In this document: piece by piece, positions 1 through 7,141 of the stretch
Layout: each line of letters opens with the position of its first letter
Position numbering within the stretch: the stretch's first letter is position 1
Assembly (NCBI GenBank): GCA_964463485.1
Contig: CAYXDO010000117.1
Location: forward strand, 1 to 34,488
Direction of reading: 5' to 3'
DNA length: 34,488 nt
From: an uncultured Myxococcales bacterium
GTDB lineage: Bacteria > Myxococcota > Kuafuiibacteriia > Kuafuiibacteriales > Kuafuiibacteriaceae
Position numbers and translations under genes: made by a program
Notes under the pieces: model-generated
What the model saw: the letters and a program-made list of their open reading frames with translations, nothing else
The model's database searches: none
Told to the model about the DNA's origin: nothing

Positions 1-54
1 GACGCAGACGATCTGACGCAGACGCAGACGATCTGACGCAGACGCAGACGATCT
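1..54. repeat. Tandem satellite at the window 5' edge: 20-bp unit gacgcagacgatctgacgca (14-mer core gacgcagacgatct) x ~2.7
   Basis: Direct reading: gacgcagacgatctgacgca repeated head-to-tail from base 1. Its reverse complement (agatcgtctgcgtc) recurs in the array at the 3' end of the window. Confidence 0.85.
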
Positions 55-332
55 CCTGCCGGTTACGTTGGCGACTCGGTCGACAGCCCAGCCCTCGGGG
101 CGGGCGATCCGAAGTCACCCACCTCGGAGCACCCTGATCGTGCTGGCGCTCGGACCGAGCTAGGCGCCTACGGCGACAGCGTGGTGGCGTCCTACGTTCG
201 TTGATCGCGCTCAGCGACGGAAGCGGCCGCTTTAGCGGCTTGCCACTCTTCGCGACCGCGGGACGCGCTCGCGAGGACGCTAGCGCGTTGGCGCGAGCGA
301 GGCCAGCTCAGCAACTTGTGCGACGCCTCGAG

Positions 333-3143
333 TCATGGCTTCTGAGTGCCGTTGGCGGGCTCTTCGGGCAGGAGGGTTTGGATGGTGCGTCCGAGTTTGG
401 TGCCGCCGACGACATCGCGGAAGATCGAAGCGACGTCCTGACCTTTGAATAGGCTGACGAGGTTCATGTTCTGCGCGACCTCGCCGAGCAGCACCTTGTC
501 GCCGACCGCCTGCAGCGCCTCCACGAGCGCCGGCTGCACGGCCTTCCGCTCGTCCACGGTGGCCTTGGCCTCGGCGTCGCGGAGCGCGATCTGGGTGTCC
601 GCGAGCGCGCGCTTGAAGGCCGTTTCCTCCTCGTGCAGGAGGCGATTGGCCCTCGCCTCGGCCTCGGATTCGGCGATGCGACGGGTGACCAACGCGTCGG
701 ACGCCCGCTTTTCGCGATCGATCCGCGCGTCCAACACGGTGAGCTCACGCCAAGCCTCGAGCTCGGCGGCGGCGCGTTTTCCTTCTTCGTCGCCTTTGAG
801 TACGGCGAGCTTCTGCGCCTGGCGCAGCCGCAGGAGCAAGTCCTCGAGCGCAGCGCGGCGCTCTTCGCTCTCGCGCTGGAGCTCGGTCCGCTCCCGATCG
901 ACGTCCTGACGCAGCTTATCCGATCTGAGTTGCTCGGTGACTTGACGATCTCCAATGACGAGCGCGACGGACTCGCGCTGCACGCGATCGAGCAGAGTCG
1001 CGATCTCTTCGTCGAGGATCACACTCTGAAGCACCTCGACCTCCGTCACCTTCATCCCGTTCTCGGGGAACGAGCGACCCTTGCGCCCAGCGTCCGTGCG
1101 CTCCCCGAGGATGATGTCGCGGAGCAACGACGGGACGTTCGGCCACAGGTCGATGAGTCGCATTTGACGGCAACGGCTCCGCACCAACGATCGCAGGTGG
1201 TCGGTGAGCACGCCGACGTAGTTTTCGTGGTTGAACCACCGGTCCTTGAGCGCGGACTCGAAGACCACCTCGTAACTCACTGTGACATTGATACGGACGA
1301 AGTCGGCGGTCTCGAGGGTGATGACGTCGGAGACTCGGTTGCCCGCGGTTCGCAAGAAACACGTGCGGAGCATCTTCGCGTCCGACTTCGGCGTCCCCGT
1401 CGAGAGAGTCATCGGCACGAGTCGCTCGTCGTACTCGAGGAGCGCGACACACGGCCCTTCGATCACGCGTTGACCGGCGGCCGAGGAAGCGAGGGCCGCG
1501 GTGTTGTGGGCGACCGTGATGGAGACGGCCCAGGGCGTAGTGGTCGGCTCGCGGGTCATCTTGTGCGGCTCTTGAGCGCCGACCCAGAGATTCCACTCGT
1601 CGGTGGGGACGGTGCGGGTGATGTGCACTTCTTTGCGTGGGTCGACGAGGTAACTCTGTTTGCCGCGCACGAGGCGGGCCTCACCGGTGCTGAGGTCGCG
1701 GACGTAGATACCGGACTTTTGATCGATCCCGATGGCTTCGATGAATACGTCGGAGTGATCGTTGCCGACGTGCGGCTGTCCGGTAGCCGGGTGCAGCACT
1801 TCGATTTCATTGAAGGGGAAGAAGAAGCAATTGACTCCCGTCAAGATGAGCTCGTCGCCCGGGTGATAGGTGGCCTCGGTGAGATCGATGCCGCGCGGGA
1901 GCTTGTGGGTGAGCTTCTCCTTGGGGATGGGGGCGATGAAGCGGACCCACAGGGCGCGCTGGGGGAGGAGCTCGAACGCGTAATAGATGCGATTGTTCGA
2001 GCCCTTGGTCATGAAAGAGTCATACGGGCCGGGAAAGACTCGGGCCGGACCCACTTTGATTTGGCGTTTGCCGTCTGCGTCGAGGATCACGCAGAATTCT
2101 TTTTCGCCGAGCACCACGGCTTGCCGAACGAGGCGAGCCTTCCTCATCTCGCGCTCGAGAGCTTGGCGGTGAATGTCACTCGACAGCACTTGCACGAGGT
2201 CCGCGCCGACGGGTTCCTCGCGCTTCTCCTCGGGCGCTGGTGGGGCGGGTCGCGCGGCCTGCTGTCGAAACCGAGCGCTTTGATCGATGGCGACCTTTGC
2301 GTCCTTTTCCTTCCTCCTCAGCGCCGGCTTGGCCTCGAGCTCGGCCATTTGGCTTTCGGCCGCGAGCTCGTCGTAGGCGCGTGCTGGCGCAGGCGGAGGT
2401 GCCGCGGCGACGGCGCCAGCGGCTGCTGTGCCCGGCATGGGTGCGGACGCCAGGATCTTTCGCGCCATCGCAGCGGTGACCTGAGTTCCGTACGCATCCA
2501 CCGCCAAATCAGGAACGACGTCGACTCCGGTCGGAGGGACGTAGAACTGAGTATCGAGCCCGCGGATCACGACGAGCTGGCCACGCTTGAGCTCGACCGG
2601 AGCGACGGTGGAGATTCCGGTTTGCGGAGTGTCACCGACGTCTTCGGCGGTCGCGGCGGTGATCGCCGCCGAGCGCGCGGTGATCTCGTAGTAGGGCGCG
2701 GCGCGATCGACCTCGCCATATACTTTGACCACCAAATACTGATTGGACGCCAGCTCGTGGGCGTCGCGGACCTCGACTCTCTGCCCGGGCCGCAGAAAGA
2801 AGCTGCAAGGGCCGGGAATCATGTGGCGGGTGCCGTTCTTCAGGACCTTCTGTTCGTTGCGACCCGATCGGAACTTACCGTTGGGCCCGCCATCATTCTC
2901 CGCCAATGGGTTGAACAAGACGGCATACTGCGAATCAGCGAGCTCGACCATTCGCTGAGGTTGTCCAGAGGGGTCCTCGACGAAGCCCCCTTGCCCGTCG
3001 TCGATCACCACCCGATCGGCCGCCGTGGGCGACACCATCGTGGGGCCCACGTGCAAGATGACTTCGCCTTTGTCGTCGTCTTGCACCCAGAGGAATTGGC
3101 GTTCGGTGACCGGGATCTTTCGGCTTCCTCGTTCGTTGCCCAT
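333..3143 (-). CDS. Major vault protein (MVP) homolog with Vault repeats, an SPFH-like shoulder and a cap-helix coiled coil; bacterial vault-like protein
   Basis: The ORF runs 333..3281 (982 aa). The likely start is the ATG at 3143 (MGNERGSRKIPVTERQFLWVQDDDKGEVILHVGP aligns with the MVP N-terminus IRIPPYHYIHVLDQ...VEVGP). Segments recognisable from eukaryotic MVP: GIYVRDLSTGEARLVRGKQSYLVDPRKEV (cf. [27 protein letters not shown]) and DVITLETADFVRINVTVSYEVVFE (cf. shoulder [24 protein letters not shown]). Repeated MVP-repeat-like blocks are present (MIPGPCSFFLRPGQRVEV, FCVILDADGKRQIKVGPARVF). The long C-terminal heptad region is rich in E/R/A/L (RESEERRAALEDLLLRLRQAQKLAVLK...), like the cap-helix. 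An Ala/Pro-rich insertion is specific to this protein. Confidence 0.8.
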   Translation of the reverse strand: MGNERGSRKIPVTERQFLWVQDDDKGEVILHVGPTMVSPTAADRVVIDDGQGGFVEDPSGQPQRMVELADSQYAVLFNPLAENDGGPNGKFRSGRNEQKVLKNGTRHMIPGPCSFFLRPGQRVEVRDAHELASNQYLVVKVYGEVDRAAPYYEITARSAAITAATAEDVGDTPQTGISTVAPVELKRGQLVVIRGLDTQFYVPPTGVDVVPDLAVDAYGTQVTAAMARKILASAPMPGTAAAGAVAAAPPPAPARAYDELAAESQMAELEAKPALRRKEKDAKVAIDQSARFRQQAARPAPPAPEEKREEPVGADLVQVLSSDIHRQALEREMRKARLVRQAVVLGEKEFCVILDADGKRQIKVGPARVFPGPYDSFMTKGSNNRIYYAFELLPQRALWVRFIAPIPKEKLTHKLPRGIDLTEATYHPGDELILTGVNCFFFPFNEIEVLHPATGQPHVGNDHSDVFIEAIGIDQKSGIYVRDLSTGEARLVRGKQSYLVDPRKEVHITRTVPTDEWNLWVGAQEPHKMTREPTTTPWAVSITVAHNTAALASSAAGQRVIEGPCVALLEYDERLVPMTLSTGTPKSDAKMLRTCFLRTAGNRVSDVITLETADFVRINVTVSYEVVFESALKDRWFNHENYVGVLTDHLRSLVRSRCRQMRLIDLWPNVPSLLRDIILGERTDAGRKGRSFPENGMKVTEVEVLQSVILDEEIATLLDRVQRESVALVIGDRQVTEQLRSDKLRQDVDRERTELQRESEERRAALEDLLLRLRQAQKLAVLKGDEEGKRAAAELEAWRELTVLDARIDREKRASDALVTRRIAESEAEARANRLLHEEETAFKRALADTQIALRDAEAKATVDERKAVQPALVEALQAVGDKVLLGEVAQNMNLVSLFKGQDVASIFRDVVGGTKLGRTIQTLLPEEPANGTQKP

Positions 3144-3267
3144 GCCTGGCTCTGTAGCACCGTCTCGGCGCGGCTGAAAGCGCCGATCGAGCTTGGTGCC
3201 CGATCCATCGAGGTGCCGGCGCGGCGGGGCGTTGATTGCGCCGCCACGACCCCGCACACTTCGTGCG

Positions 3268-4890
3268 ATGGTGACATCCAAGGGGCCGAGGCTCCACGTG
3301 TCGGAATCCGGAGGTGGGCGGCTCCGTCTTTTCGGCTCGCTGCTGGGCGTGCGAACGCTCCTGTCGGCGCTGTGGCTGTGGGCGTTGACGTTACCTTTGC
3401 TCGCGCTGGCGGTGTTCCGAACCTACGAGAACCAACTCGTGCGTCGTACGGAGGAGGCACTCATTTCGGAGGCCGTGGTCGTCGGCGAGTCCGCCCGTCA
3501 GGTCGTCGATCCCGGCGCGACGACCCAGCTCGAGACCCCTCAGGGCGAGCCGTTCGTGCCGCTGCAGCCCACGCTCGATCTCCGGATAGATCAGCTTCAC
3601 GGAGTCGCCCGCAGAGCTGGCACCGCGACGACCTCCATCGAAGAGCGGTGGCGTCCGCTCACGGCGCTGCTCGAGCGCGCCGAGCTACGCAACCTCACGG
3701 GCGTTCGCGTGCTGGACTCGTCGGGTGTCGTGGTGGCTTCTCCGAAGCGCGAGGTCGGATACTCCCTCGCGCACCTTCCGGAGGTTCGCGCGGCGATGGA
3801 GGGTCGCTACGAGCCGGCGCTCCACGAGCGAGGTCGGCATGCCTCCGAGCCGCACCCAAGCAGCTTGTCGCGAGCCAGCGCGATTCACGTCTCGATCGCC
3901 GTTCCAGTGTTTTCGAAGCCGCGAAGCCAGGCTGGCGACGACGACGAAGTCATCGCGATCGTCTACGACAGTCGAACGCCGATGGATGTGGAGAAGTCGA
4001 TTTGGCGCCTTCGAGAAGAGCTCGTCGTGCCTGCGTTGGCGAGCATTGTGCTGACTCTGGGGTTGATGTTGTTGCTGTCGCGTCTCATCGCCCAACCGCT
4101 CGTGACACTCGCCGGGGCGGCGCGGCGGGTGGCGGACGGCCACCGAGGCGTCGCTCTGACTCCGCGTGGGTTTGCTCCCAAGGAGGTCGGTTTTCTGAGT
4201 GAGAGCCTCGAGCGAATGCGGACTCAGCTCGAAGGGCGAGCCGAGTACGTGCGCACGTTCGCGGCTAACGCGGCCCACGAGCTCAAGAGCCCGCTGACTT
4301 CGATCCGCGGGGCCGCCGAGCTCTTGCTAGAGGCGGAGATGAGTCGGGACCAGGCGAGAAAGTTTCTGGAGAACGTGCTCGAAGATGCCGTTCGCATGGA
4401 CAAGCTCGTTCAGCGGCTGCTCGTGCTCGCGCGCGTGGAGTCGTCCTCCCCGAACCGCAGCGACGTCGAGCTCGGCGAGCTCCTCGACGCGATCGCGGAG
4501 CGCCACCGGCGCCGCGGGCAGCCTGTACAGGTGGCGCACCCAGAAGCACCTGTTCGGCTCTTTGCGGACCCAGAGCAACTCGAAGCCATGTTCGGGAGCC
4601 TGATAGACAACGCCGTACGCCACGGCGGACCCGAGCCGGTCGAGGTGACGCTAGAGGTTCAAGGAAGAGCGGCGATCACGCGGGTGCGAGACCATGGGCC
4701 CGAAGTGCCCGAGGAGCTCATGAGCAATCTCTTTGAGCGTTTCTTCACTACCGAGCGAGCGCGAGGTGGCACTGGTTTGGGACTCTCGATCGTTCGAGCT
4801 GTCGCTGAGGGTCACGGGGGTGAAGTGCACGCCGTGCGCAGGGACCGCGGCCTCGAGCTCGTCGTGCAACTCCCGGTCAAAGATCCGTAA
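3268..4890 (+). CDS. Sensor histidine kinase with two TM segments, a periplasmic sensor domain, HAMP, HisKA and HATPase_c
   Basis: TM1 LLSALWLWALTLPLLALAVF; TM2 VPALASIVLTLGLMLLLSRLI followed by HAMP (AQPLVTLAGAARRVADG). H-box AHELKSPLTSIRGAAELL; N-box LIDNAVRHG; G-boxes RDHGPEVPEE and GGTGLGLSIVRAVAEGHGG. The start could lie anywhere from 3193 to 3349 (TTG, ATG or GTG candidates); the ATG at 3268 was chosen. The gene is divergent from the MVP gene. Confidence 0.85.
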   Translation: MVTSKGPRLHVSESGGGRLRLFGSLLGVRTLLSALWLWALTLPLLALAVFRTYENQLVRRTEEALISEAVVVGESARQVVDPGATTQLETPQGEPFVPLQPTLDLRIDQLHGVARRAGTATTSIEERWRPLTALLERAELRNLTGVRVLDSSGVVVASPKREVGYSLAHLPEVRAAMEGRYEPALHERGRHASEPHPSSLSRASAIHVSIAVPVFSKPRSQAGDDDEVIAIVYDSRTPMDVEKSIWRLREELVVPALASIVLTLGLMLLLSRLIAQPLVTLAGAARRVADGHRGVALTPRGFAPKEVGFLSESLERMRTQLEGRAEYVRTFAANAAHELKSPLTSIRGAAELLLEAEMSRDQARKFLENVLEDAVRMDKLVQRLLVLARVESSSPNRSDVELGELLDAIAERHRRRGQPVQVAHPEAPVRLFADPEQLEAMFGSLIDNAVRHGGPEPVEVTLEVQGRAAITRVRDHGPEVPEELMSNLFERFFTTERARGGTGLGLSIVRAVAEGHGGEVHAVRRDRGLELVVQLPVKDP

Positions 4891-5117
4891 GTACCGCAAG
4901 GAATTTCTCGAAAGACCCTAACAGGCTGCTGAAAAAGTCGCGATCTGAGAAGTCTACCCAGAGGATCGGCCGTTGCCGTCGGCGTCGCCGCAACTCATGA
5001 TCCCGTTCATCCCGCCATCTTCACCAACACGGACACGATTCGGTGCAACAGCGTCTGCGTCGGATGAGTTTCCGCACTCTTGGTCGGTCGTCCGCTCTCT
5101 CATGCGACCCACTCCGC

Positions 5118-5171
5118 TCGGCGACGGCGACGGCGACGGCGACGGCAACACAACGACGGCAACGGCAACGG
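5118..5171. repeat. Microsatellite (GGCGAC)n degenerating to GGCAAC/GACGGC units
   Basis: ggcgacggcgacggcgacggcgacggcaacacaacgacggcaacggcaacgg, read directly. It lies inside the 640-bp HK–activator intergenic region. Confidence 0.85.
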
Positions 5172-5330
5172 TTTTCGGGACATGGGATTTGTCTAGGTGT
5201 TCGAAATGATCAAGGAAATCGGTTTCAGCAGCCTGCTGAGGCTCCGCAAGGAAATAACTTGCAGCATTCCTCGAGCGCCAACAGTCGATCCCGTCATTCC
5301 TTGACGAGCCCTAAGTACACGTCCGTGGAA

Positions 5331-5475
5331 GTTCGTGACCACGCTGAAACCACAGAGGACGCGGAGAGAAGACACAGAGGACACAGAGAAGTGCTCATTC
5401 CATCATCTGTGTGCTCTGTGGGCCTCGGCTCTGTGCTCTCTGTGGTTTCTCCCGCGGTCACGAATTTGCGGGGAC
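5331..5475. repeat. ~145-bp imperfect-palindromic interspersed repeat, copy A (MITE/REP-like; cacagag-rich arms flanking a ggaatgagca core)
   Basis: The arms ttcgtgacc...gaaaccacagag...cacagag...ctcattcc and ggaat...ctctgtggtttc...ggtcacgaa are mutually inverted. The element matches 15044..15176 (opposite orientation, ~85% by eye) and 18586..18690 (same orientation, left arm shortened). Confidence 0.7.
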
Positions 5476-5530
5476 CTGAACTAAGCGCAGTTCCCCAAGC
5501 TCGTGATCAACGAAGTGGGCTACGAGGAGC

Positions 5531-7141
5531 TTGTCTCGACGACCTGCTGCTGGTGTAGACTCCGTGTTCTTGAGTCGCCGTGGTTCGAAACGCGACCAGC
5601 TTTTCTCGGAGACGCTGGAGCAGCCACCGGAGCCAGCGGCAACGTCGGATCGAGCGACTCTCTTCTTGACCGTGGCTTTTCACCCGGACCTGTCGCGCGT
5701 CGGTGACGAAGCCGTTGTGGAACGCGAAATCCGATTGTGCCGAACCGAGCCGGATTTCGTCCCACCGAGGGGAGGTGAGGCTTGGCCTCTCGCCGACGCG
5801 TTCGTTTCACGGCGGCCGGCCACGATCCGGGCTGAGGGTGACGGAGGAGCTACGTTGATCCGCAGCGCCGACTCGGTCCCGCTCGCGATCGGAGGGGTTG
5901 CGGTCGCGCACGAGACGCGACTCTCGGCCGGCGATCTCCAGCGCGGAATCGCGCTCGAGGTCGCCCAGCGCGTGCTCCTGTTGGTGCACCGGAGGCCTGC
6001 GCGCCGCCCTTCGCCGCCCGAGCTTCGGCTCGTTGGTGAGTCCGTCGAGCTCGATGAAATCAGGCGTCAAATCCTTCAGGTCGCCGATCTCGGGGTTCCG
6101 ACGTTGATCCTCGGTGAGACGGGGACCGGCAAGGAGCTCGTGGCGGAGGCCATTCATAACGCTAGCCGTCGGAGCTCGCTGCCATTCGTGAGTGTCAACA
6201 TGGCGGCGATCGCGCCGACCGTCGCCGCCTCCGAGCTCTTCGGCCATCGTCGCGGTGCGTTCACCGGCGCGGTGGGCGACCGCGTCGGCTTTTTTCAACA
6301 GGCTCACGGAGGCACCATCTTCCTCGACGAAGTCGGAGAGATGCCCGTCGACGTGCAAGTCATGCTCCTCCGCACCCTAGAGAGTGCGACAATTCAGCCC
6401 GTCGGAGCTCCTTCGACGCAGCCCATCGACGCGCGAGTGCTCTCGGCGACTGACTCCGACCTCTCGAAGCTCGTGGCTGAGCAGCGATTTCGCCCGGCCC
6501 TCCTGCATCGGCTCTCCGGCTTCGAAATTTCATTGCCTCCGCTTCGAAATCGTCGTGACGACCTCGGACGCCTCCTGAGTCACTTCCTTCAGAAGGAGCT
6601 CGCGGGGACGGGAGACTGGGATCTGGTGGAGTCGCGTATGAAAGATGCCCGTCCGTGGATCTCGTTGGACGTAGTGCGTTCATTCTTCGACTACGAGTGG
6701 CCAGGCAACGTCCGGCAGCTCCGGAACCTGGTTCGCCAGCTCGCGATCGCAAACCGCGGGGCCGACACGGCGACGCTGCCGGCGGCCATTCAGAGGACAC
6801 TCTCCGAAGGGCTGCTCGAGGCGAGCCCAAGTCGTCCGGCGGCGCGGACGGAGCGCCGCAAGCCGTCCGACGTGGAGGGCGAGGAGCTGATCTCCGCGCT
6901 CAAGGCGCACCGGTTCAACATCCACGCGACCGCGGAGTTTCTCGGAATCACGCGGCCCTCGCTCTACATGTTGATCGAAAAGAGCGATCATCTCCGAAAG
7001 GCCTCCGACATTTCCGCGGTCGAAATCAGGTTGGCGCACGCGGAGGCGAACGGGAACTTGAACCTCATGGCTGAACGGCTGGAAGTTTCGCCGCGCGGAC
7101 TTCGACTCAGGCTGGGCTCGCTCGGGCTGACCGAGTCGTGA
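5531..7141 (+). CDS. Sigma-54-dependent transcriptional activator (bacterial enhancer-binding protein) with an N-terminal FHA-like domain, AAA+ domain and C-terminal HTH
   Basis: Walker A LILGETGTGKELVAEAIH; GAFTGA motif RRGAFTGAVGDRVGFFQQAHGGTIFLDEVGEM; R-finger region; C-terminal Fis-type HTH HRFNIHATAEFLGITRPSLYMLIEK. The N-terminus has an FHA-like pattern (DAFVSRRPATIRAEGDGGATLIRSADSVPLAIGGVAV...LSAGDLQRGIA) and no receiver aspartate region. The ORF starts at TTG 5531 and the true start is uncertain. Its stop overlaps the next gene's start (GTGA). Confidence 0.85.
   Translation: MSRRPAAGVDSVFLSRRGSKRDQLFSETLEQPPEPAATSDRATLFLTVAFHPDLSRVGDEAVVEREIRLCRTEPDFVPPRGGEAWPLADAFVSRRPATIRAEGDGGATLIRSADSVPLAIGGVAVAHETRLSAGDLQRGIALEVAQRVLLLVHRRPARRPSPPELRLVGESVELDEIRRQILQVADLGVPTLILGETGTGKELVAEAIHNASRRSSLPFVSVNMAAIAPTVAASELFGHRRGAFTGAVGDRVGFFQQAHGGTIFLDEVGEMPVDVQVMLLRTLESATIQPVGAPSTQPIDARVLSATDSDLSKLVAEQRFRPALLHRLSGFEISLPPLRNRRDDLGRLLSHFLQKELAGTGDWDLVESRMKDARPWISLDVVRSFFDYEWPGNVRQLRNLVRQLAIANRGADTATLPAAIQRTLSEGLLEASPSRPAARTERRKPSDVEGEELISALKAHRFNIHATAEFLGITRPSLYMLIEKSDHLRKASDISAVEIRLAHAEANGNLNLMAERLEVSPRGLRLRLGSLGLTES

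Follow-up and report, generated by a model that had tools for sequence, protein, structure and literature searches.

Vaults are abundant, conserved particles whose function has stayed elusive for 40 years. The closest described system is the eukaryotic major vault protein (MVP; rat, human and rabbit, PDB 4V60, 4HL8, 9BW5, 9Z4W), a soluble protein without a membrane anchor whose chain runs from nine repeats (R1-R9 in rat) through a shoulder and a cap helix (~155 residues) to a cap-ring segment, and whose particle is known. In human MVP, residues R507, P508, H509 and R511 belong to an NAD+/ADP-ribose pocket, the conservation of which is variable even among animals (PMC12280208). Bacterial or prokaryotic homologs of MVP have been discussed several times (PMC3762200; bioRxiv 10.1101/872010, 10.1101/2023.11.10.566534 and 10.1101/2024.07.03.601958), and Daly et al. 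2013 (PMC3762200) listed MVP proteins of Saprospira, Microscilla, Flexibacter and Herpetosiphon. Asgard archaeal homologs, which belong to another domain of life, are known from prediction and are likened here by their published description, have the same order of shoulder and cap helix with five repeats, and were modelled as a far smaller 10-mer cup (bioRxiv 10.1101/2024.07.03.601958); according to the same work, the number of repeats varies among prokaryotic MVP homologs. In the membrane SPFH cages (HflK/C, flotillin 1/2, prohibitin 1/2, stomatin, QmcA and erlins), too, a long helix comes after the SPFH domain, and its lateral packing yields closed domes of 16-44 subunits; these proteins have N-terminal membrane anchors, no MVP repeats and shorter helices, their domes sit on membranes, and their likeness to the protein described here is at the level of the fold only.

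We analysed an MVP-like gene in DNA from an uncultured Myxococcales bacterium; the window is the whole stretch of 34,488 nucleotides (34 kb) that was studied. An initial annotation, made from the letters alone, had proposed that the gene encodes a bacterial homolog of eukaryotic MVP, and from the evidence below we regard such homology, spanning the whole chain, as virtually certain. The features of the gene and its surroundings are collected in Table 1.

Table 1. Features of the MVP-like gene and its divergent neighbour, in positions of the window
Feature	Position	Strand	Details
MVP-like CDS	333..3143	minus	complete, 936 aa + stop; 103.6 kDa, pI 5.9
C-terminal helical segment	336..539	minus	residues 869-936; alignment with the cap ring of rat MVP reaches residue ~843
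Cap helix	540..1010	minus	residues 712-868; predicted as a single unbroken alpha helix (157 residues); aligns with the rat cap-helix region
SPFH-like shoulder	1011..1343	minus	residues 601-711; PF11978; pLDDT ~97
Beta-repeat modules S4-S7	1344..2129	minus	residues 339-600; Vault_4/Vault_3 matches; aligned with rat ~275-519; pLDDT 93-98
Flexible insertion separating S3 from S4	2130..2498	minus	residues 216-338, ~120 aa
Basic motif IDQSARFR in the insertion	2265..2288	minus	conserved; invariant columns in the alignment
Beta-repeat modules S1-S3	2505..3122	minus	residues 8-213; strands, pLDDT >90; profile positions 11-124 align with rat R1-R2
Divergent intergenic region, 205 bp	3144..3348		between the MVP-like gene and the histidine-kinase gene
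HAMP/HisKA histidine kinase gene	3349..4890	plus	gene calls

The open reading frame of the MVP-like gene runs uninterrupted to its stop at 333 and offers two starts, a TTG at 3281 (982 aa) and an ATG at 3143 (936 aa). The TTG is merely the candidate furthest upstream. The true start is the ATG, since 60 homologs align from residue 1-8 on, residues 8-49 are almost invariant, and a MAG protein at NCBI, labelled hypothetical protein in GenBank, is 100 % identical over the same 936 aa. Coverage of 99-100 % against more than 100 full-length homologs shows that the gene is intact, and its GC3 of 0.79 lies inside the range of the neighbouring genes (0.73-0.85), with no compositional break; an intact gene without frameshifts and with consistent codon bias had been claimed from the start, rightly in both respects.

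Evidence for homology comes from profile, sequence and fold comparisons. The Pfam model MVP_shoulder (PF11978) matches with 66.9 bits (cut-off 25; E = 2e-18) over profile positions 3-117 of 118, whereas Band_7 (PF01145) gives no match at E ≤ 1, so the likeness is not that of a generic SPFH/band-7 protein. None of the Pfam repeat models (PF01505, PF17794, PF17795, PF17796) reaches its gathering score: Vault_3 falls 0.1 bit short (28.7 bits against a threshold of 28.8), Vault_4 scores 18.2 against 22.9 and Vault_2 12.6 against 23.6, and PF01505 has no match in the protein; relatives of the protein do exceed the Vault_3 threshold. A search of NCBIfam gave no match. Direct sequence search of the PDB finds eukaryotic MVP as the best match, with rat MVP at 9e-22 (about 80 bits) over rat residues 378-843, and the family profile matches rat and human MVP at 1e-69, in pieces lying on R1-R2, on R6-R8 and on R9 through the cap helix.

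An AlphaFold2 model based on a diverse alignment of 90 sequences has a pLDDT of 82 and a pTM of 0.63, with pLDDT above 90 at residues 10-215 and 340-600 of the N-terminal half. It replaced a first run on 60 close homologs (58-84 % identity), the N-terminal half of which was unusable (pLDDT 56). Among PDB entries, Foldseek matches the model best to full-length MVP of human, rabbit and rat, at 1e-36 to 1e-29, with a sequence identity of about 17-19 % in the structural alignment; a crystal of murine MVP repeats R1-R7 follows at 5e-14, and flotillin, HflK/C, prohibitin and stomatin are far weaker (1e-7 to 1e-4). The N-terminal half is thus an array of MVP-type repeats and not a set of unrelated beta domains, and the domain order of MVP, which the initial annotation had described as fully kept, is recovered by Pfam, PDB sequence search, structure model and fold search alike.

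The beta-stranded part of the protein comprises seven segments (S1-S7), all of which are linked by internal repeat homology in hhalign (S1 with S4, 91 %; S1 with S6, 91 %; S2 with S3, 82 %; S6 with S7, 79 %; S3 with S5, 92 %). S6 and S7 are the counterparts of rat repeats R8 and R9. The best-conserved part of the whole protein is S1 (residues 8-61), with a mean column identity of 98 % at residues 21-40. Strand groups and hhalign together give a repeat count of about seven, compared with nine in rat MVP. The N-terminal Vault repeats named in the initial annotation are therefore present as repeats of MVP type, but their number is about seven rather than nine and their array is split by an insertion of ~120 aa that had been overlooked.

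This insertion is specific to the subfamily. It is Ala/Pro-rich with charged helices, has a pI of 9.1, is poorly conserved, varies between 86 and 150 aa among close homologs, and is modelled with pLDDT below 50 at residues 237-257 and 269-309. Within it, a short motif of the form IDQSARxR stands out, in which Q288, R291 and R293 are invariant among 60 homologs. Canonical bacterial MVPs of ~810-870 aa, represented here by P0181, P0166 and P0194, form the group to which the proteins listed by Daly et al. 2013 belong. They have 29-36 % full-length identity with ours, an identical domain order and a common Pfam signature (MVP_shoulder and Vault_3), but lack the insertion, and the PPTG..C anchors that lie 145 aa apart here are separated by only 23-25 aa in them. 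Eukaryotic MVP likewise has no such insertion.

The shoulder, cap helix and cap-ring segment are shared with the eukaryotic form. The shoulder motif DVITLETAD aligns with rat DVITIETAD, bearing out a shoulder pattern near-identical to the eukaryotic one, and the two proteins have in common the motifs DVIT(L/I)ETAD and STG.PK / SAGRPK. A cap helix of some 150 aa had also been correctly foreseen. The stretch that spans the helix measures 181 aa here, 178 in rat and 162 (about 19 shorter) in canonical bacterial MVPs; the model of the helix falls below a pLDDT of 50 at residues 749-752. Fourier analysis of the helix yielded no period of hydrophobicity or conservation beyond that of shuffled sequences, and therefore argues neither way. 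Residues ~861-910 align with the cap-ring segment of rat MVP (797-843), and within the subfamily column identity is 85 % at residues 861-900, while the last ~15 residues are variable. The strong purifying selection seen in these alignments on the N-terminal repeat and on the C-terminal segment is in keeping with homotypic interfaces. The NAD+/ADP-ribose pocket is not kept: in the alignment, human R507/P508/H509/R511 correspond to S/D/A/M.

The initial annotation had called bacterial MVP homologs rare, and this does not hold. We found bacterial homologs in 997 clusters at 50 % identity, and 6,516 clusters of the canonical form of ~830 aa from many phyla; as cited above, such proteins have been in print since 2013. 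The insertion-bearing subfamily alone is present in about 75 GTDB species, including cultured Polyangium and Minicystis, and is largely confined to Myxococcota/Polyangia; Polyangiaceae encode both the canonical and the insertion-bearing form. The gene is thus a further member of a known, uncharacterised family, and the locus itself adds little that is new. What is new is the description of a Myxococcota-specific subfamily with about seven repeats, a 120-aa insertion carrying a basic motif, a cap helix of vault length and a near-invariant N-terminal repeat. Its orthologs in cultured strains allow the cage hypothesis set out below to be tested there.

Could the gene have come recently from a eukaryote by horizontal transfer, or represent eukaryotic contamination of the MAG? 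Daly et al. (PMC3762200) raised transfer from eukaryotes to bacteria for cyanobacterial homologs that are 54 % identical to rat MVP. Here, however, GC and GC3 match those of the neighbours, typical myxobacterial genes flank the gene on a 74-kb contig, and the subfamily occurs in the ~75 species named above. Against rat MVP the score is only ~80 bits, whereas hundreds of bacterial clusters give 250-1100 bits, and the sampled bacterial clusters are all about equally far from rat, at 24-94 bits (a comparison of bit scores only, made with a rat MVP fragment reconstructed from the alignment). Composition, context and bit scores effectively refute a eukaryotic origin of either kind, and we consider it extremely improbable.

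From these observations, the best explanation, and one that we judge probable as a whole, is a soluble cytoplasmic protein of the MVP family, the branch of the SPFH superfamily that is not bound to membranes. Like MVP and all SPFH proteins of known structure, it would self-assemble, with its shoulders and long helices packed side by side, to give a ring or dome that closes on itself. The published regression for SPFH cages (subunits = 0.1782 × helix length + 10.22; PMC12624060), extrapolated to a helix of 157 residues, gives 38 subunits; a ring would hold about 38, near the 39 of the half-vault. The repeats would form the wall of the barrel, shorter than in rat, and with about seven repeats and a 120-aa insertion in the wall the geometry could differ substantially from that of rat MVP. 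We think it likely, by analogy with known cages, that some large ring or dome is assembled. Two such domes may pair through the near-invariant N-terminal repeat into a closed vault-like shell; a closed vault of two halves is a tentative proposal, plausible but short of an even chance. The flexible insert would be displayed in ~38 copies per dome, where IDQSARxR could serve to hold cargo or nucleic acid, or to regulate the particle, although a role of the insert as a tether seems to us distinctly unlikely. In its most complete form, the hypothesis would have the Polyangia subfamily build a closed cytoplasmic vault-like shell with ~38-fold rings, a barrel shorter than in eukaryotes, and an insert (~38 copies per half-shell, roughly double that per particle) tethering RNA or protein cargo; this full picture we hold to be doubtful.

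Two other arrangements have to be weighed against a soluble cage. Like flotillin, HflK/C, stomatin or prohibitin, the protein could instead form a single SPFH dome whose open end is attached to the inner face of the cytoplasmic membrane, with the repeats as a skirt and the insert touching lipid or membrane proteins. The shoulder does have the SPFH fold, and among the structural matches the proteins of SPFH cages come next after MVP; some canonical bacterial relatives are labelled 'SPFH domain-containing protein' by NCBI, and several match Pfam Band_7. Moreover, of the known SPFH assemblies only the vault does not lie against a membrane, and half-vaults exist (PMC12624060). The protein itself, however, contains no transmembrane-like or hairpin segment (maximum 19-aa hydropathy 1.36) and, as noted, no Band_7 domain; its N-terminal half is an array of MVP-type repeats in place of an SPFH1 or membrane-anchor module, and in Foldseek the E-values of full-length MVP are better by more than 20 orders of magnitude than those of any membrane SPFH protein. 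We consider attachment to the membrane quite improbable.

A bacterial MVP-like protein might also act without forming vaults, as Sokolskyi 2019 (10.1101/872010) suggested, in which case our protein would work singly or in small oligomers, perhaps as a scaffold or by binding nucleotides or other ligands, and its MVP-like fold would be an evolutionary precursor state. In agreement with the initial annotation, according to which no bacterial homolog had been demonstrated to form a particle, the literature that we searched contains no report of a bacterial vault particle, the PDB matches are eukaryotic vaults only, and we found no experimental paper or PDB entry on any bacterial MVP. The number of repeats and the insertion depart from the canonical form, and no signal of helical periodicity was detected. 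Against this stand the structures of comparable proteins: all proteins of known structure in which a long helix follows an SPFH domain form closed rings (PMC12624060), and a lone, solvent-exposed helix of 157 residues is unlikely to be stable. A helix-spanning length within 3 residues of that of rat, together with a conserved cap-ring segment, is difficult to account for unless the geometry of assembly is shared. A protein that builds no cage is thus, in our estimation, unlikely, and the soluble ring or dome is the reading we prefer.

If vault-like cages do form in bacteria, they would offer a model accessible to genetics and would inform the question whether vaults are older than eukaryotes. 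Were the closed-shell reading to prove true, the shell would be a nanocompartment of bacteria different from both encapsulins and BMCs, and it could be studied in myxobacteria that grow in culture (Polyangium, Minicystis rosea). As for a new class of bacterial organelle, as envisaged at the outset, it may exist, and it would not be peculiar to this locus.

The gene neighbourhood holds no specific hint of a cargo. Scans for sigma-70 and sigma-54 (-24/-12) promoters in the divergent intergenic region and for terminators gave nothing above chance, and the divergent histidine kinase is an adjacency common only to the nearest relative (84 % identical). Neither vault RNA nor any other Rfam family matches the 34-kb window, which also contains no tRNAs, and the models of PADLOC (anti-phage defence systems) and PHROGs (phage protein families) gave no match at E ≤ 0.01. 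No TEP1- or PARP4-like gene adjoins the MVP-like gene or recurs in 54 related loci. A survey of these 54 loci and five further look-ups for conserved neighbour or cargo genes found synteny only within the genus Polyangium, where a MutS-domain-V protein is encoded upstream and an unknown protein of ~330 aa downstream; Ser/Thr kinases occur near the related loci at about the chance rate. One of the related loci (L004) carries a DUF4062-AAA_16-WD40 gene at a distance of ~7 kb.

On the minus strand of the window, an uninterrupted open reading frame ends at 333; initiation at the first TTG, 3281, would give 982 aa, and initiation at the first ATG, 3143, gives 936 aa. The initial annotation had given the coordinates 333-3281 and the range of lengths correctly, without stating the strand. 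An identical 936-aa protein is deposited at NCBI from a 'Deltaproteobacteria bacterium' MAG (GCA_016208175.1, JACQYO010000043.1, 74 kb), and in an alignment of 60 homologs conservation starts at residue ~4, with residues 8-49 almost invariant; these two observations identify the ATG at 3143 as the true start. Because GC3 (0.79) and GC content resemble those of neighbouring genes and more than 100 homologs can be aligned across 98-100% of the protein's length, the gene is native to its genome and, as had been proposed, intact. Its product, which we call the MVP-like protein after the eukaryotic major vault protein (MVP), has a mass of 103.6 kDa and contains no hydrophobic segment (highest 19-aa hydropathy, 1.36).

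That this protein is a homolog of eukaryotic MVP is, in our view, scarcely in doubt. With a score of 66.9 bits and E = 2e-18, it exceeds the cut-off (25) of Pfam MVP_shoulder, and it does not match Pfam Band_7, so that the similarity is not a generic SPFH match alone; the repeat models match less well, with Vault_3 at 28.7 (cut-off 28.8), Vault_4 at 18.2 and Vault_2 at 12.6. In a phmmer search of PDB sequences, major vault proteins were the sole matches (E ~ 1e-21), residues 469-909 aligning with rat MVP 378-843, a stretch that runs from repeat R8 through R9, shoulder and cap helix to the cap ring. The shoulder motif quoted in the initial annotation is present, DVITLETAD pairing with rat DVITIETAD. 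A profile built from 90 diverse family members found rat and human MVP at 1e-69, with extra pieces on R1-R2 and R6-R8. An AlphaFold model built on a shallow alignment had a poor N-terminal half; a second, from a diverse alignment (pLDDT 82, pTM 0.63), is beta-rich at 10-215 and 340-600 (pLDDT above 90), followed by a shoulder at 601-711 (pLDDT ~97), one helix at 712-868 and short C-terminal helices. Searching the PDB with this model, Foldseek placed full-length human, rabbit and rat MVP at the top (1e-36 to 1e-29) and the crystal structure of murine MVP repeats R1-R7 next (5e-14), the latter match showing that the N-terminal half does not consist of unrelated beta domains; flotillin, HflK/C, prohibitin and stomatin ranked lower (1e-7 to 1e-4).

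Beta-repeat modules of the MVP-like protein
Module	Residues	Type	Basis
S1	8-61	beta module	strand groups in model
S2	62-118	beta module	strand groups in model
S3	119-213	beta module	strand groups in model
S4	339-394	beta module	strand groups in model
S5	395-468	beta module	strand groups in model
S6	469-533	beta module	strand groups in model
S7	534-600	beta module	strand groups in model

Profile-profile comparison connects all seven modules (S1 with S4, S1 with S6 and S3 with S5 at ~91% probability, S2 with S3 at 82%, S6 with S7 at 79%), and the N-terminal half is therefore a true repeat array of about seven units, compared with nine in rat MVP. The segment at ~216-338, between S3 and S4, shows little conservation, has a length of 86-150 aa in close homologs and is a low-confidence part of the AlphaFold model. 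In the canonical bacterial relatives of ~830-850 aa, the anchors PPTG and C(V/I)LLD are spaced 23-25 residues apart, whereas in the MVP-like protein they are separated by 145, which makes the segment a clean insertion of ~120 aa. The insertion is rich in Ala/Pro and mildly basic, and holds one invariant short motif, IDQSARFR, with Q288, R291 and R293 invariant. From the ENG motif of the shoulder to a conserved C-terminal Ala we count 181 residues, compared with 162 in most canonical bacterial forms and 178 in rat MVP (counted from the phmmer alignment). In the alignment of the bacterial family, the interval from the shoulder to the C-terminal motif, within which the cap helix lies, takes a set of discrete lengths (155, 162, 173, 177, 181 and 188) separated by steps of 4, 7 or 11 residues, each equivalent to whole helical turns, a hint that geometry constrains the helix. 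The NAD+/ADP-ribose pocket of human MVP (R507, P508, H509, R511; PMC12280208) is not conserved, since the corresponding residues are S, D, A and M.

An exhaustive phmmer search with the MVP-like protein against 1.84 billion cluster representatives retrieved 997 clusters at E <= 1e-3 and 489 at E <= 1e-30, the best 150 bacterial clusters scoring 250-1128 bits, compared with ~80 bits for rat MVP. The insert-bearing subfamily comprises about 75 GTDB species representatives, almost all Myxococcota/Polyangia, including the cultured Polyangium fumosum, P. jinanense, other Polyangium spp. and Minicystis rosea (complete genome), with a few MAGs binned as Planctomycetota or Thermoanaerobaculia. The canonical ~830-aa form accounts for 6,516 clusters (90% identity) from Bacteroidota, Chloroflexota, Eremiobacterota, Riflebacteria, Patescibacteria, Desulfobacterales, one gammaproteobacterium and Polyangiaceae, many of them already annotated either as 'major vault protein' or as 'SPFH domain-containing protein'. 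Homologs have been named in Corallococcus, Plesiocystis (two copies), Microscilla, Saprospira, Flexibacter, Herpetosiphon and cyanobacteria, with an in silico prediction that they could dock into vaults (Daly et al. 2013, PMC3762200); those of Myxococcales, Cytophagales and Oscillatoriales have been analysed (Sokolskyi 2019, 10.1101/872010), and preprints describe phage MVPs (2023, 10.1101/2023.11.10.566534) and Asgard homologs with five repeats (2024, 10.1101/2024.07.03.601958). Given these counts and papers, in print since 2013, such homologs are not rare, and the initial annotation, while right on homology, was wrong on rarity and novelty: the protein is a new member, in a describable Polyangia-specific subfamily, of a known bacterial family. 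Its statement that no bacterial homolog had been shown to form a particle agrees with our literature search, in which no experiment demonstrating a vault in bacteria was found, and with the PDB (sequences as of 2026, structures up to April 2026), whose vaults are all eukaryotic. Whether bacteria make vaults is a real question, testable in cultured relatives and not specific to the window.

Some Myxococcota genomes carry two insert-type paralogs (loci L012 and L062 of MAG BF4_93). Because Polyangiaceae also encode the canonical ~828-aa form (P0300, P0320, P0367, P0373), two types may share one cell, reminiscent of the two Plesiocystis copies (PMC3762200). The canonical proteins P0331 and P0194 are annotated in Patescibacteria/Parcubacteria MAGs, where mis-binning is possible; as these cells and genomes are very small, a cage of ~35-40 subunits of 95 kDa would be a surprising cost. 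An 802-aa 'prohibitin domain-containing protein' of Harvfovirus sp. (BFVD A0A3G5A4K1) can be aligned to the model across ~950 columns (E ~ 1e-11), far beyond the SPFH core, which suggests that a giant virus encodes a protein of MVP type.

A bacterial gene resembling a eukaryotic one could reflect recent acquisition from a eukaryote or eukaryotic contamination. The bacterial clusters sampled, whether insert-bearing or canonical, all lie about equally far from a rat MVP fragment (24-94 bits), none being eukaryote-like; this equidistance, the native composition and the typical myxobacterial neighbours exclude both explanations.

Upstream, a 205-bp spacer separates the gene from a divergent HAMP-HisKA-HATPase histidine kinase gene, beyond which lie genes for a sigma-54 enhancer-binding protein, a Ser/Thr kinase with a PEGA domain, a TPR protein, a MatE transporter and others; downstream, the source contig encodes a DUF1565-like protein, unknown proteins, an acetyltransferase, an AAA ATPase and SRP54. 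The histidine kinase neighbour is common to the nearest relative (84% identical) and no other. Across 54 related loci no neighbour recurs, save for synteny within the genus Polyangium, and the MVP-like gene thus stands by itself, neither cargo nor partner being encoded next to it. Rfam, including vault RNA, has no match in the window, models of defence systems and phage families do not match the protein, and no promoter motif upstream of the gene rises above chance. About 250 bp 3' of the stop codon, in the intergenic region ahead of the DUF1565-like gene, lies a 20-bp tandem repeat, CGTCTGCGTCAGATCGTCTG (8.1 copies, 94% matches; 13059-13221 of the source contig, L001), which occupies window 1-85 and runs on past the window start. 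Between the histidine kinase and sigma-54 activator genes, window 4891-5854 (~960 bp) has no called gene; the activator gene, as called on the source contig, spans window 5855..7141, with a frame extendable upstream to a TTG at 5531, and the ORF at 5043..5558 (+) encodes an odd, low-complexity product.

All structurally characterised proteins that combine an SPFH domain with a long helix form closed rings or domes by lateral packing, and the vault is the sole soluble member to close into a complete shell (PMC12624060). All the parts relevant to assembly are kept in the MVP-like protein (shoulder, a helix as long as that of the vault, conserved cap-ring segment), and it has no membrane anchor. 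From these features, we hypothesize that shoulders and long helices would pack side by side, so that assembly as a large ring or dome is somewhat favoured. Helix length and copy number are linearly related (y = 0.1782x + 10.22; PMC12624060). Extrapolation of this relation gives about 38 subunits for the 157-residue helix and about 35 for the canonical bacterial forms, with their helix shorter by about 19 residues. The former value is essentially the 39 subunits of a half-vault. The cap helix has no significant periodicity, which speaks neither for nor against assembly. The most conserved stretch of the protein is its N-terminal repeat (residues 21-40, 98% mean column identity); in the rat vault structure of Tanaka and colleagues from 2009, this repeat reportedly makes the waist contact between half-vaults, and its conservation thus fits a homotypic interface. 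Two half-shells might join through this near-invariant repeat, but we regard a closed particle of two halves as less likely than not. Each subunit would carry the insertion as a single flexible loop, with its basic motif, on one face of the wall; that this loop acts as a tether or in regulation is speculation, and we consider a tether as such unlikely.

Flanking synteny was observed in ten Polyangium loci (L003, L017, L018, L026, L028, L029, L033, L034, L043, L050). A MutS-domain-V protein (~620-770 aa) is encoded upstream, ending about 80 bp from the MVP-like gene, and in some loci overlaps its start or sits farther off; a conserved ~330-aa protein without a Pfam domain begins 35-92 bp downstream in seven of the ten, with a TetR regulator farther downstream. 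Either an operon particular to the genus or synteny alone could account for these flanks. At one locus alone (L004 19568-22814; GCA_016277765.1, JADHED010000002.1), a 1,782-aa gene with DUF4062, AAA_16 and WD40 propellers, a TEP1-like STAND architecture, lies ~6.7 kb downstream of the MVP homolog; within TEP1, a vault protein, DUF4062 forms the TIR-like NADase domain (10.64898/2026.05.01.722283). Since Myxococcota are rich in STAND/WD40 genes, this placement may be due to chance.
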